A stretch of 64,000 nt of DNA from Clostridia bacterium. GTDB lineage: Bacteria > Bacillota > Clostridia > Lachnospirales > Anaerotignaceae. Both the position numbers and the translations under genes were made by a program. The stretch spans positions 6,894 to 70,893 of the forward strand of contig RZZU01000012.1 in the NCBI GenBank assembly GCA_009929735.1, in the 5' to 3' direction. Below, one piece after another: positions 13,524 to 17,196 of this stretch (the stretch's first letter is position 1; the number at the start of each line of letters is the position of its first letter). The notes under the pieces were generated by a model. The model saw only the letters and a list, made by a program, of their open reading frames with translations, had not been told where the DNA came from and searched no databases.

Positions 13524-13568
13524 TTAAAAAATGCTAATATTGGTCTAATTTAGACCAATATTAGCATT
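13524..13568 (-). terminator. Rho-independent terminator closing the MBL operon transcription unit
   Basis: Perfect 18-bp stem AATGCTAATATTGGTCTA (13530-13547) / TAGACCAATATTAGCATT (13551-13568) with a 3-nt loop, followed on the minus strand by a T-run (13529-13524). Confidence 0.8.
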
Positions 13569-13911
13569 CTACGACCTTTTCCTCTGTTTTATTCAAAACC
13601 ACGGAAACCCCTTATTTCAAGCCTTTTTCACACACCTATTTCTCCGCCCTTGTAATCAACGCTATCGTCTCAACGTGTGTTGATGTTGCGAATCGGATTC
13701 ACTCAAAGCATAGTTTACTCTTGGCGGAACGCTTATATTCAACAAAAATATATATGTACTTTAACTTACATACCCCTATACATACGGCACCTTAACAGCA
13801 CACCTCAATCAAATTTACTTGTTAATAATGAGTGGTCATTTTTATCTTATTGGTAAATATGAACCTTGCGGAATGCAAACCATTAGAGCGAAAGTCCGAT
13901 TTAAATAAATG

Positions 13912-14799
13912 CTAGAAATTTAATGTACCAATATAATGTCCATATGTATCTGGCATTTTCTCATTTTCCAAGAAAGATTCAGAATAATTATTATTTGAAA
14001 CATACACATGTACCTTTCCATCAGTACATTCGAATACAATATCGCCAGCAGTATTTTGAGTAATCGTGTTATATCCATTATAATAGTTCAAATTTGAGGA
14101 AGGAGCTTCTCCAATCACAATAATTCGGGGATTAAGTTTTTCCAAAATATCTGATGGAGTCTTTCCTGATTTTCTTCCATGGTGAGGAGCGAAAAAAATT
14201 GTTACCTCAGGGAAATCAATTTCTTCTTTAACTGAATCAATAAAATCATGTTCTAAGTCTCCCATCCACATAATTTTAGCACTATCAGTTAAAGAGTAAG
14301 TTAAAATAGGAGAAATGTTGTTGGGACTTTTGCCTTCTTTCGCCGCTTTTAATGCTTCCTTAAATTTATTGTTTGAAGTAATGGGCCATAGGCAATTTAT
14401 ACCTGCAGAACCACGTTCATTATCGCTCTGATTCATCCATTTTCGAGAACAACCCTCATACAAATAAAAATGCTTATCTCCATCACGCAATTCACAATAT
14501 TTCCCAAAATCATCACTTGAGTCTGTTTTTGTAGCTTCATTCTCAACACAATAAAAATTTACAATCCCAACTTGAGAACAAAAATCAACAAGACCTCTGA
14601 TATGGTCATCATCTGGGTGAGTTGATATAAATCTTGTTATTCCTTTGTTCTTAGCTTTTTCATTTATTTCCGTATAAATATCCTCTTGATTATCTAAATC
14701 AGTGCTATAGCAACAATCAATTGTGGTAAAATTATCACTTCCATGTTCAATATAAAACATATCTCCATTTGCAACAGAAAAAGACTTAATAATACTCAT
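13912..14799 (-). CDS. MBL-fold metallo-hydrolase, ComEC-type signature (paralogue B, 295 aa)
   Basis: ISTHPDDDHIRG (HxDxDH variant) and the distal FFAPHHGRKSG motif. Last gene of the four-gene operon. Confidence 0.75.
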   Translation of the reverse strand: MSIIKSFSVANGDMFYIEHGSDNFTTIDCCYSTDLDNQEDIYTEINEKAKNKGITRFISTHPDDDHIRGLVDFCSQVGIVNFYCVENEATKTDSSDDFGKYCELRDGDKHFYLYEGCSRKWMNQSDNERGSAGINCLWPITSNNKFKEALKAAKEGKSPNNISPILTYSLTDSAKIMWMGDLEHDFIDSVKEEIDFPEVTIFFAPHHGRKSGKTPSDILEKLNPRIIVIGEAPSSNLNYYNGYNTITQNTAGDIVFECTDGKVHVYVSNNNYSESFLENEKMPDTYGHYIGTLNF

Positions 14800-14833
14800 A
14801 ATATTTTAGCATCCTTTCTTTCACTTGTTGTAT

Positions 14834-15508
14834 CTAACTTTGCAAATCATATGCCAATACATTGGTTGCAAAACGCCGACCTTTTATATGTGCAGTAACA
14901 TTAGTAATTATAAGCATAATTACTAAATACAATATTGATGTCCAATTAAACTCAAGTACATTAATTAGGTTGCATGAAATCAAATAGGATATAATTATCA
15001 CAAGAGTTGATATATATAAGTCTCTACATAAAAGATAGTCCCTATTTGATACAAATATCATAGATACATTGCGATGCTTATTGTAAATCTTATACCATTG
15101 AGAATTTTCATATTTTAACTTTTCTTTCTTATCAACTGGTAAGCCTTCATATATTTCCTTATACTTTGCAAGCAGTTGCCCAGTCGTGAAACGCAGGTCC
15201 GTATTTTTCTTTTTAAGTTCACTAAAAATTGTTTCACCAGGTAAATGTCCTGTAAAATATAGTAATTTCATTTTTACACCACTACTAAACAGTGCATCTG
15301 CTAAAAATGCAAAAATGTAAATGCTTGATGAAAGAAGTGTCGAATCTAATATTTTTACCAAGACGTTTAACCACTCATATTGGTTGTTCTGTAAATTAAA
15401 TAAATCAGAAAGTAGAATCAAAACAAATATATTAGCGACAATATACATTTTTTGCTCTTTTTCACGGTAGTCCTTCAAATTATCCACAGCATGCTCCTTT
15501 CTTATCAA
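14834..15508 (-). CDS. Polytopic membrane protein (about 4 TM helices with a central cytoplasmic loop of about 90 aa), function unknown
   Basis: Hydrophobic helices YIVANIFVLILLSDLF, LLSSSIYIFAFLADALF, LYISTLVIIISYLISCNLI and ILYLVIMLIITNV. The listed start is TTG; a GTG at 15487 has a better SD (AAAGGAG, 6-nt spacer). Confidence 0.65.
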   Translation of the reverse strand: MIRKEHAVDNLKDYREKEQKMYIVANIFVLILLSDLFNLQNNQYEWLNVLVKILDSTLLSSSIYIFAFLADALFSSGVKMKLLYFTGHLPGETIFSELKKKNTDLRFTTGQLLAKYKEIYEGLPVDKKEKLKYENSQWYKIYNKHRNVSMIFVSNRDYLLCRDLYISTLVIIISYLISCNLINVLEFNWTSILYLVIMLIITNVTAHIKGRRFATNVLAYDLQS

Positions 15509-15548
15509 TGGCCACTTACTTATATCATAGCAGTCCTTTATCTCTATT

Positions 15549-16088
15549 TCAATCTCCTAATAATAGGATGGGGGACACATGAACAAACGATTCCTTTATT
15601 GCCTCCATAAAGCCTTTTCTCCTGTTCTTAAACAATTCACGCTCTGATAATGACGTTTGAAATCCAAACGTGCCTTTATTGTTTAAAGTTGTTGACTGTC
15701 GAAAAATCATATTTCCATCTATTGATAATTCTTGCTTGGCAAACCAAAGCACAATGTCTTGATTAAAAAACTTCATATTGCTCAGTAATTTTTTATCCGA
15801 CATTTTTTCCCATATACATGTGTTTGCAACAACGAACTTTCCCATGTAAATTTCTCTAACCGCACAGAGTTTGTAAACATCGCCGATATGTGCTGTTATG
15901 AATGTTCCATCTATCCCATCATTTGAAGTGCAGCAAAGGTATTCTTTACATATTTGTCCGCCTACCTTTATAAAGCTCCAATCAGAAACTTCAGCACTTG
16001 TCACACTTTGAATATAATTTCTTCGTGCCTGCACTTGATTAATATCAACAGCAATATCTTTACCAGTACCTATAATCCATCTCACCAA
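15549..16088 (-). CDS. Hypothetical 179-aa soluble protein with no recognisable motif
   Basis: ORF overlaps the end of the upstream MBL gene by 29 nt (translational coupling). Composition is globular. Confidence 0.6.
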   Translation of the reverse strand: MVRWIIGTGKDIAVDINQVQARRNYIQSVTSAEVSDWSFIKVGGQICKEYLCCTSNDGIDGTFITAHIGDVYKLCAVREIYMGKFVVANTCIWEKMSDKKLLSNMKFFNQDIVLWFAKQELSIDGNMIFRQSTTLNNKGTFGFQTSLSERELFKNRRKGFMEAIKESFVHVSPILLLGD

Positions 16089-17010
16089 GCCTTACTCCTT
16101 GTGGTTTACTACTCGTTCCAACTCCAATTCCGTTTTTAGGTAGAAGTAACACTCCAGTTTTAGTATTCATGGCTGGACTGTAGTTTTCCTCTTTCATATA
16201 ATGTACTAACTTATCGGATCCTCCGCTTGTTATACCTGAACCAGTATTATCAGAAATAAAATATTCTTTACTATATGAATCATTTAATTCGTCAAATATC
16301 GCCTGAGCATCATCCAATTGACCATGGTGAGGCAGCTGAATAATATCATAGCTATTAAGATTATGCAAATATGAGGGTGAAGCATCACCACATAACAGGA
16401 TAGTTTCCGCATTATCCAATTTACACTTCAACTGAACACTTGCTGCATTCATTACTGTTTCCTCAGCATGTCCTTCACCAATATTATTACCCACGCGACT
16501 ATCTACTGCTTTTGCCGCGACATCAGTAAACTCATCTATCGTTGGTCCAACAATTGTACAACTGCCTACGCCTGTTCCGCTTAATGCTTCTATAGTTGAA
16601 AAACCCAACTCCTGTGCGGTTTCTATTATCTCCTTGATATTATCAAACTCAGCTAATAGCGACCGTTTTAAGCTATCACGTGTCCTTCGTCCATCATCAA
16701 TTTTGTCAAGAATTGTATCAACATGCTTCAGATACTGGTGTGAATAAATCTTTAGTGTATATTTACTGTGATTATTTAACCAATTAAGTAAATCGCATAC
16801 TCCATCTGTATGATCGCCATCATTGTGCGATACAACAATATGTACCTGTGAAATTAATGAGTTAAATTGTAAAAATGCTTCGACTGCTTCTGCATGTTTT
16901 GTGTGCCCACAATCATAGACCACCAGAGATGTACTGTCATAAAGCAGTATGCAATCTCCGAACCGTGAATCCTTATCCCCTGAATAATGACTTAAAGCTT
17001 TAAGTTTCAT
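16060..17010 (-). CDS. MBL-fold metallo-hydrolase, ComEC-type signature (paralogue A, 316 aa)
   Basis: VVSHNDGDHTDG (HxDxDH variant) and the distal IIQLPHHGQLDD motif. AAAGGGG SD before ATG 17010. First gene of the operon. Confidence 0.75.
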   Translation of the reverse strand: MKLKALSHYSGDKDSRFGDCILLYDSTSLVVYDCGHTKHAEAVEAFLQFNSLISQVHIVVSHNDGDHTDGVCDLLNWLNNHSKYTLKIYSHQYLKHVDTILDKIDDGRRTRDSLKRSLLAEFDNIKEIIETAQELGFSTIEALSGTGVGSCTIVGPTIDEFTDVAAKAVDSRVGNNIGEGHAEETVMNAASVQLKCKLDNAETILLCGDASPSYLHNLNSYDIIQLPHHGQLDDAQAIFDELNDSYSKEYFISDNTGSGITSGGSDKLVHYMKEENYSPAMNTKTGVLLLPKNGIGVGTSSKPQGVRLGEMDYRYW

Positions 17011-17137
17011 TCAATAACCCCTTTCTACAAGAACATTGTGGTGGCTTGCTCACCATTCTTAGTACAACAATCTGAAACAGATAAGTTCCGCACGCTTTCT
17101 GTTAGCACTCCATCGCCTCGAGTGCTAGTTTAATATC

Positions 17138-17166
17138 AGTATATCACTCCAGTAATTCCATGTCAA
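17138..17166 (-). promoter_or_regulatory. Near-consensus sigma-A promoter TTGACA-17-TATACT driving the MBL operon
   Basis: Minus strand: -35 at 17166-17161, 17-nt spacer, -10 at 17143-17138, about 125 nt upstream of ATG 17010. Confidence 0.65.
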
Positions 17167-17168
17167 GG

Positions 17169-17196
17169 CGATAACCACAACATATTGTGGTTATCG
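17169..17196. promoter_or_regulatory. Perfect 12-bp inverted repeat CGATAACCACAA-CATA-TTGTGGTTATCG just upstream of the -35 (possible operator)
   Basis: Read directly. It lies 2-3 bp from the TTGACA hexamer, and no T-run follows on either strand, so it is not a terminator. Confidence 0.4.

Follow-up and report, generated by a model that had tools for sequence, protein, structure and literature searches.

Several catalogued or described defence systems contain a protein with the metallo-beta-lactamase (MBL) fold. PDC-M48 of the PADLOC database, which is itself a computational candidate only, consists of a protein of ~165 residues with four transmembrane (TM) helices (PDC-M48A) and an MBL-fold protein of ~295 residues (PDC-M48B). 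6A-MBL, as van den Berg et al. 2024 are said to have described it, pairs an MBL-fold protein with a Cap2/3-like E2-E1-JAB protein. 6A-MBL is reported to be anti-phage (PMC13276650; bioRxiv 10.1101/2025.09.30.679545). In Avs1a/Avs2-MBL, in HamM (Hachiman-trypsin-MBL) and in the caspase- and subtilisin-linked clades, MBLs remotely related to ComEC have a linked, co-evolving partner, and AbiL comprises the AAA_21 ATPase AbiLi and the RloB-like AbiLii. In this study, a cassette of four genes (P1 to P4) is compared with these systems; it lies in a stretch of 64,000 nucleotides from a Clostridia bacterium (contig RZZU01000012.1, positions 6,894 to 70,893), hereafter the window, whose own numbering is used unless a relative is named.

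The cassette is a variant of the catalogued candidate PDC-M48 and a relative of the validated 6A-MBL, and not a wholly unknown system. It is well supported that it is a composite of two related modules, each with a ComEC-like MBL and a small four-helix membrane protein, module 1 being P1 with its obligate partner P2 and module 2 being P3 with P4. It is equally well supported that P3-P4 is a PDC-M48 variant and also a Cap2/3-less form of 6A-MBL, that P1-P2 is a distinct sub-module which elsewhere uses an M48A membrane protein and an AbiLi-like ATPase, and that P3, as the only membrane gene, is shared by the two modules or at any rate is placed between them.

Proteins of the cassette

The genes and the terminator that closes the operon are as follows.

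P1, 16060-17010, minus strand: 316-residue cytoplasmic ComEC-like MBL-fold hydrolase, partner of P2
P2, 15549-16085, minus strand: 178-residue alpha/beta protein whose fold is not recognised, with its translation coupled to that of P1
P3, 14834-15487, minus strand: 217-residue membrane protein, 2TM - soluble helical segment - 2TM
P4, 13912-14799, minus strand: 295-residue ComEC-like MBL-fold hydrolase, PDC-M48B of PADLOC
Intrinsic terminator, 13528-13570, minus strand: 20-pair stem followed by a T-run

All four frames run in one direction, as an earlier note on this DNA, made from its letters, had described them, and the starts of the middle two were moved. The list of open reading frames gave P2 as 15549-16088 (179 residues) and P3 as 14834-15508 (224 residues); from the positions of the Shine-Dalgarno (SD) sequences and the N-termini of homologues, the starts were reset to GTG 16085 and GTG 15487, respectively. 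With the P2 start at GTG 16085, the coding regions of P1 and P2 overlap by 26 nt. By hydropathy, P3 alone has hydrophobic segments, and neither a signal peptide nor a TM segment was found in P1, P2 or P4.

P4 matches the PDC-M48B model PDLC04673 over residues 1-294 of 295 (E value 5.5e-139, 460.6 bits), and P1 matches a second PDC-M48B model, PDLC04676, in its N-terminal half only (E value 3.6e-16). Together with the usual membrane partner of P1-P2, which is PDC-M48A, these matches overturn the expectation in the earlier note that the cassette would find no named PADLOC system. The translations contain SHNDGDHTDG and LPHHGQ in P1 and THPDDDHIRG and APHHGR in P4, so that the HxDxDH and PHHG motifs read earlier in both outer proteins are all present. 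A profile of the P4 family has the MBL domains of ComEC as its sole matches among solved structures (9ic4, 7.9e-08; 30bt). Since the P4 family and the 9ic4/30bt ComEC alignment share the same two motifs, the ComEC-type signature is supported. The metal-site residues H61/D63/D65/H66, D181 and H206/H207 of P4 are invariant in 31 relatives, as are D19, H62/D64/D66/H67, D209 and H228/H229 of P1 in 26-31 relatives. P4 has >5000 relatives. P1 and P4 are very diverged (21% identity, pairwise E value 0.13), again in keeping with the note, and their families align with an HHalign probability of 98.2%.

Pfam finds only Lactamase_B in P1 and P4. Neither the ComEC channel domain nor the N-terminal OB/DUF4131 domain was found in them by Pfam, which agrees with their description as ComEC/Rec2-type MBLs lacking the channel. 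Weak N-terminal matches of P1 and P4 were obtained to other defence MBL models (Avs1a, RTasMBL, LmuA and 6A-MBL), and P1 has weak matches to RNase Z; both proteins fall well short of the cut-offs set for the ComEC and RNase Z equivalogs. PHROGs gave weak matches only, to an MBL-containing tail protein family. The single P1 sequence found nothing in the PDB, and the P1 profile found only designed pentatricopeptide repeats, which arose by summing sub-threshold repeats and were discarded as an artefact.

P2, which had been called an orphan, is a member of a family with at least 233 clusters (54-96% identity). An exhaustive profile search of 1.84 billion representatives returned 96 relatives only, all of them standalone proteins of ~170-190 residues, with no fusion among the 96. 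Residues C53, S55, D57, H67, N89 and C91 are invariant. The AlphaFold2 (AF2) model is confident (predicted local distance difference test, pLDDT, 87.8), and Foldseek found no structural match for it in the PDB or BFVD (best PDB E value 0.018, TM-score 0.27); the sequence has no match in Pfam, PADLOC (E<=1), NCBIfam or PHROGs. A mini-caspase or known hydrolase, considered for the spacing of a strand-His and a strand-Cys, was rejected, having no support from Foldseek, Pfam, PDB sequences or fusions. A protein of ~148 residues (k56) follows shorter P1-like MBLs in three loci of relatives (L029, L045, L102; L-numbers denote such loci), and it appears to be a remote P2 homologue (HHalign 80%, E value 1.4e-5) that keeps the His and Cys of 'FITGH ... 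ATTC'.

In P3, hydropathy and the structural model show four hydrophobic helices, all of them long, with ~75-90 soluble residues in the middle, a 2TM - soluble - 2TM layout that bears out the four TM helices and ~90-residue loop proposed earlier. The P3 family has 58 clusters and 190 metagenome relatives, and its soluble domain contains invariant polar residues. The AF2 model is all helical (pLDDT 89.5), with no match in the PDB. P3 has no match at E<=1 to any PADLOC model, PDC-M48A included; as a positive control, protein c2 of L001 matches the PDC-M48A model PDLC04670 at 2e-52. P3 and PDC-M48A have the same topology and genomic position. P3 was nevertheless not accepted as a diverged PDC-M48A, because the HHalign probability is 15.8% and covers the last TM pair only, and the two are left as analogous, with homology unproven. 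A third 2+2-TM family, of ~240 residues, adjoins the same MBL clade in Bacillus cereus and also adjoins 6A-MBL pairs on plasmids of Clostridium perfringens and Emticicia (Bacteroidota) (L124, L127). An M48A+MBL pair is present on a 12-kb conjugative C. perfringens plasmid.

Conservation of gene order

Relatives were gathered in a P2-centred set of 44 loci from genome, viral and exact-protein look-ups, and in a P3-centred set of 80 loci, in which MBL genes were counted within 3.6 kb. In 43 of the 44 loci, the gene immediately upstream of P2 is of P1 type, the exception being disrupted by an insertion sequence (IS). For the window and the first 25 loci, the overlap of the two coding regions was itself confirmed. 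The gene that follows P1-P2 encodes a membrane protein, which is a ~165-residue PDC-M48A in 36 loci and of P3 type in 7. Of the 36 M48A-type loci, 32 have an AbiLi-like ATPase (AAA_21/AAA_15, 1e-68) as immediate neighbour, which stands by itself in divergent orientation or runs in the same direction as an RloB/AbiLii-like gene (L001-L025, L106-L123). A tblastn search of the window, with five queries for the ATPase and one for RloB, found neither gene. This suggests that ATPase-MBL-P2-TM is an undescribed system and that the window holds an ATPase-less form of it. Since AbiLi-like ATPases flank 32 of 36 P1-P2-M48A loci, the data also suggest that the P1-P2-TM module is an effector add-on to AbiLi-like sensors.

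In the P3-centred set, a P4-type MBL is present in 65 of 80 loci and another MBL in 6, the remaining 9 being short contigs; none of the loci with adequate flank is without an MBL. In 16 of the 65 loci with a P4-type gene, the MBL and a neighbour of ~720 residues pass the NCBIfam equivalog cut-offs for 6A-MBL (L032, L033, L042-44, L047, L049, L050, L062, L067, L072, L075, L077, L096, L100, L105). The MBL scores 326 bits (L032) against a cut-off of 220, and Cap2_3 scores 366 against 320. The 6A-MBL gene pairs are translationally coupled to a small 2+2-TM gene, which is of P3 type in Clostridia. It may be that 6A-MBL has a third component, so far unrecognised, in the form of a membrane protein.

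The cassette had been taken for a self-contained four-gene unit, a view that does not stand, for P1-P2(-TM) and TM-P4 are conserved separately. It is then possible, if on balance unlikely, that two independent systems merely abut, P1-P2-P3 being one and P4 (or P3-P4) a separate or decaying remnant of PDC-M48. P1-P2-TM and TM-P4 each occur alone in many genomes, a promoter-like site precedes P3 within the operon, and the exact order P1-P2-P3-P4 is found in the window and L003 only. L003 belongs to an Anaerotignum metagenome-assembled genome and is 98.7% identical to the window over 14396-17314; its P1-P3 are 97-98% identical to those of the window, and its P4 breaks off after codon 134 at an IS256-like insertion (from L003 11693; window 14396). 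However, loci with P1-P2 and a P3-type gene usually carry a second MBL where enough sequence is available (window, L003, and L013-15 and L110, the last four in the order P1-P2-MBL-TM). Two MBLs also flank one TM gene in the recurring order MBL-TM-MBL (L095, L098), triples of the clusters k10-k1-k0 are found, and two MBL types occur in 7 of the 80 P3-centred loci. The gaps within the cassette are short, and a single terminator serves the operon. In L055, L057 and L063, the order is MBL-MBL-TM.

Transcription signals and the 5' leader

The signals upstream of P1, and the two further sites that bear on transcription of the cassette, are listed below.

17138-17166, minus strand: sigma-70-type promoter TTGACA-17-TATACT with extended -10 TG, 11 of 12 consensus positions
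17169-17196, minus strand: perfect 12-bp inverted repeat CGATAACCACAA-TATG-TTGTGGTTATCG, abutting the -35 element, candidate operator
17103-17127, minus strand: 5'-terminal hairpin or inverted repeat TAGCACTC-N9-GAGTGCTA, a few nt past the predicted transcription start
17027-17054, minus strand: leader hairpin or H-type pseudoknot with covariation, abutting the P1 SD sequence
15524-15552, minus strand: internal promoter-like site TTGAAA-17-TATGAT (TG) before P3-P4, a match to 10 of 12 consensus positions only
~17430-17390: terminator hairpin of brxL, visible in the sequence

The promoter, the terminator hairpin of brxL upstream of it and the operon terminator are all where the earlier note had placed them, the last being measured here as a 20-pair stem at 13570-13528. 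As a class, promoter-like sites are not enriched in the region (18 found vs 21.6 expected). The P1 promoter itself is real, because its -35 element is invariant and its extended -10 is kept in eight loci whose P1 proteins are 60-80% identical. The palindrome of the earlier note fared less well: the perfect 12-bp repeat does abut the -35 element, but it is confined to the window and the near-identical L003, where it differs in the outermost pair, and it was rejected as a conserved operator. Other P1 loci have a different palindrome, similar to GATAATGTGA-N5-TCACATTATC, at ~8 nt further upstream.

Just past the predicted start, the TAGCACTC and GAGTGCTA arms are both invariant and their loop is variable in a leader alignment of loci with diverged proteins. 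The TAGCACTC repeat is present in 9 of 33 distinct P1 leaders, all nine of which have a promoter of their own, and the hairpin forms in both the minimum free energy and the centroid folds. It may serve as an operator, or as a stem-loop that stabilises the 5' end.

The second leader element lies immediately 5' of the P1 SD sequence, AGAAAGGGG, at 17026-17018. As a pseudoknot, its stem S1 would pair GGTG (17054-17051) with CACC (17043-17040), and its stem S2 would pair GCAAGC (17049-17044) with TCTTGT (17032-17027). In the leader alignment, S2 is 95.8% paired, and four of its six pairs have changes on both sides, among them GCAAGC/GCTTGC, GTAAGC/GCTTAC, GCAGAC/GTCTGC and GCAGG/CCTGC; S1 has the compensatory change GGTG/CACC vs GGCG/CGCC. 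The covariation score is 0.278, compared with 0.178 +/- 0.018 for shuffles, of which 0 of 500 reach 0.278, and slid controls give <=0.114. The hairpin is also found upstream of P1 in L001, L002, L005, L007, L012, L013-15, L017, L020, L021, L025, L054, L106, L107, L109, L112, L120 and L122, and in more diverged loci its position is taken by a hairpin whose stems are unrelated in sequence. A covariance model of the leader matches only P1 leaders across 1.07 Mb, and the hairpin has no match in Rfam. Thermodynamic support was sought and rejected (z-score -0.67, not significant). Since the folding energy is unremarkable, it is the covariation that makes the case for the structure.

An Rfam scan of 13300-17600 at E<=1 gave just two chance-level matches, both in the brxL terminator region. 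Between the stop codon of P4 and the terminator there are ~340 nt of untranslated sequence (13571-13911). This 3' tail has no match in Rfam, and no conservation downstream of P4 genes was found in the fetched loci, where its sole match is a 54-nt segment of 78% identity at another position in L003; a conserved 3' tail was therefore rejected.

Overall, the cassette would be expressed from one strong promoter and would probably be tuned by an upstream operator and by the structured 5' leader. With its conserved structured leader, P1 would be one of the rare toxic defence effectors that are controlled at the RNA level.

Genomic context

The defence-island setting proposed for the cassette holds, and relatives are found in defence contexts as well. 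On one side of the cassette is a type I BREX system (17556-32360). A PDC-M14A/B candidate pair (26235-27535) is embedded in it between brxC and pglX, and a gene for a 112-residue YjcQ-family protein (22243-22581) lies between pglX and pglZ. On the opposite side is a type II CBASS, with E1-E2 and JAB genes at 4298-6599 and a CD-NTase gene at 6600-7709. Two genes occupy 9255-13363, between CBASS and the cassette. One encodes a 909-residue UvrD-type helicase with C-terminal topoisomerase-type zinc ribbons, which matches the GajB and RTasHel models, and the other a 384-residue secreted lipoprotein with an NS-type endonuclease domain. The CBASS-distal edge (341-3946) contains a LytTR response regulator, IS1 and rve transposase fragments and a DUF6765 protein. 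In L003, a 3.1-kb insertion (L003 5633-8775) separates brxL from the cassette at the position of window 17305-17314; it encodes a 496-residue protein (c56) and includes a 0.5-kb piece of the nuclease-gene region of the window (11996-12526).

Beyond BREX, window 32972-44147 encodes a MobA/VirD2 relaxase, a NikA/MobC protein and a large polyvalent protein of 2,967 residues (LPD16 and SNF2-type helicase), and the G+C content climbs from ~0.33 to ~0.40 at ~35 kb. With the relaxase, MobC/NikA and large polyvalent protein nearby, the island is therefore cargo of a conjugative or mobilisable element. In relatives, components of type I, III, IIG and IV restriction-modification (R-M) systems, mad2 and PbeA are among the six nearest neighbours of 24 P1-P2 loci; one locus adjoins PglZ and another a type I R-M system. 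P2 is present on just one of 2.9 million viral contigs. With this single match, and weak PHROGs matches only, a phage origin was rejected.

Possible mechanism and alternatives

Once activated, defence MBLs with a remote relationship to ComEC act as Zn-dependent, non-specific double-stranded DNA (dsDNA) nucleases and cause abortive infection (bioRxiv 10.1101/2025.11.14.688446, 10.1101/2025.09.03.673762). Because these published relatives are latent dsDNA nucleases, we favour, at roughly even confidence, a reading of the composite in which Zn-dependent DNase effectors are gated by membrane and accessory partners. P1 and P4 would be latent non-specific dsDNA nucleases and the effectors of the system. 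In uninfected cells, P2 would hold P1 inactive, and the cytoplasmic domain of P3 would hold P4, and perhaps P1, inactive. A phage-dependent cue, which would act at the membrane or, for most relatives, be detected by the ATPase, would free the nuclease; phage and host DNA would then be degraded and the infection aborted.

Several points weigh against this proposal. P3 has no detectable homology to PDC-M48A, and the ATPase found beside most P1-P2 loci is missing from the window. The gating roles given to P2 and P3 are pure inference, since neither protein has a recognisable fold. The case for DNase activity extrapolates from relatives that are distant (only 23-37 bits against the models of Avs1a and 6A-MBL), and the MBL fold also covers RNases and phosphodiesterases. 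P4 may be dispensable, since the IS256-like element truncates it in L003. Small multi-TM proteins in CBASS-like operons are usually effectors and not regulators. Finally, in the searchable literature PDC-M48 is named in no paper and no member of it has been experimentally tested; MBLs are not mentioned in two screening papers either.

A rival reading is a CBASS- or Pycsar-like arrangement, which we hold only tentatively and consider doubtful. The MBL would be the sensing, signal-processing or 'primed' part, and the 2TM-loop-2TM protein would be the killer that permeabilises or depolarises the membrane, with MBL+TM as the 'type I' form and 6A-MBL, with its Cap2/3 E2-E1-JAB protein, as 'type II'. 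The MBL+TM pair does occur with and without Cap2_3, an exact parallel to CD-NTase+effector in CBASS of types I and II, and three unrelated-looking TM families share one topology, as would be expected of interchangeable effectors. The invariant polar residues in the soluble domain of P3 could bind a ligand, and a membrane-effector architecture fits the data equally well. However, all characterised defence MBLs of the broad clade are nuclease effectors, the ComEC-type metal site is conserved, and no nucleotide-binding or known pore-forming domain was detected in P3. No MBL in defence is known to make a small-molecule product.

A more far-reaching version is distinctly unlikely in our judgement. 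MBL and 2TM-loop-2TM would form a minimal 'type I' of signalling-type immunity (6A-MBL being 'type II'), in which the ComEC-like enzyme, far from being a simple DNase, produces or processes a signal, or is primed by conjugation, and the signal opens a membrane protein of new fold. P2 would be a new-fold Cys/His enzyme or a sensor that licenses the P1 branch, and the pseudoknot would be a new cis-regulatory RNA (riboswitch or protein-binding leader) controlling a defence nuclease.

The mobile setting of the island raises the question of an addiction or toxin-antitoxin-like module, or of a device for entry exclusion or against conjugation, by which DNA would be degraded as it comes in at the membrane; in place of an anti-phage system, we regard either as quite improbable. 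The island adjoins the relaxase, MobC/NikA and large polyvalent protein, P4-type pairs are present on small conjugative C. perfringens plasmids, the P1-P2 pair of a nuclease and a tightly coupled small partner resembles toxin-immunity pairs, and the analogy with ComEC points to incoming DNA. Against this, the linkage to anti-phage parts (AbiLi/AbiLii-like genes, Cap2_3 of 6A-MBL, R-M and BREX) is consistent, and P1, P2 and P4, having neither signal peptide nor TM segment, would therefore not face incoming DNA outside the membrane. That the cassette has a housekeeping role in competence, the cell envelope or RNA metabolism and happens to lie in the island is scarcely credible and already disfavoured: although the ComEC-like MBL domain serves natural transformation and P1 has weak RNase Z matches, there is no ComEC channel or OB domain, the distribution is patchy and on mobile elements, the gene order is modular and shuffled, the defence partners are consistent, and the ComEC and RNase Z equivalog scores are far below cut-off.

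Comparison with known systems

The nuclease-effector composite that we favour can be set against each of the known systems in turn. Like PDC-M48, the cassette has adjacent TM and MBL genes. On the MBL side, P4 corresponds to PDC-M48B over its full length and P1 through the second model; on the membrane side, P3 belongs to another sequence family. A system-level PADLOC call on the cassette would probably fail because no PDC-M48A model matches P3. The canonical A+B pair is found in L072 and on a C. perfringens plasmid. The cassette differs from it by an extra MBL (P1) and by P2, for which PADLOC has no model. 6A-MBL uses the same MBL clade (k1 cluster), but P4 reaches 37.1 bits against the 220-bit cut-off of its model (NF058524) and P1 has no match. 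No Cap2/3 protein (NF058523) is encoded at 13.5-17.2 kb, and the E1-E2 and JAB genes of the window belong to CBASS. The proposal of a candidate undescribed defence system is thus upheld in that the cassette is of defence type, but not in its novelty, as it is a variant of a catalogued candidate with a validated relative coupled to P3-type proteins.

The Avs1a, HamM and protease-linked modules resemble the cassette in their remotely ComEC-related MBLs and linked partner. P1 and P4, however, score 22.7 and 31.3 bits against the Avs1a equivalog (cut-off 420 bits), over an N-terminal stretch only, and they are ~70-90 residues shorter than Avs1a-type MBLs. Their partners are membrane proteins, whereas those of the Avs1a/HamM type are STAND or helicase sensors. 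The protease-MBL modules have an adjacent trypsin-, caspase- or subtilisin-like protease that cleaves the MBL, and no protease domain is recognisable in P1-P4; P2 resembles none of the three protease types in Pfam or Foldseek, although a protease of novel fold is still conceivable. The MBL domain of ComEC/Rec2, the only relative of the P4 family with a solved structure, has the HxDxDH and PHHG motifs in common with the cassette, and in ComEC too an MBL nuclease works with a membrane component; P1 and P4 are separate cytoplasmic proteins, without the ComEC channel and OB parts. Neither component of AbiL is in the window, although both lie beside most P1-P2 relatives, and AbiL as described includes neither an MBL nor P2 nor a membrane protein. 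The cassette contains no SMODS or cyclase domain such as a CBASS or Pycsar signal generator would have, the nearby CD-NTase being that of CBASS.

Overall, the comparison links PDC-M48, 6A-MBL and AbiL-type ATPases, which are kept apart in the databases, and points to one modular family, in which a small membrane protein of four helices accompanies a ComEC-like metallo-nuclease. The published two-gene descriptions of 6A-MBL may be incomplete if a membrane partner generally belongs to it as a third component. P2 and the P3-type proteins are widespread and have confident models with no recognisable fold, and models of protease-activated zymogens do not explain them. The version in the window, with no ATPase, two MBLs, 3.8 kb in total and a promoter and terminator of its own, offers a compact starting point for the family.

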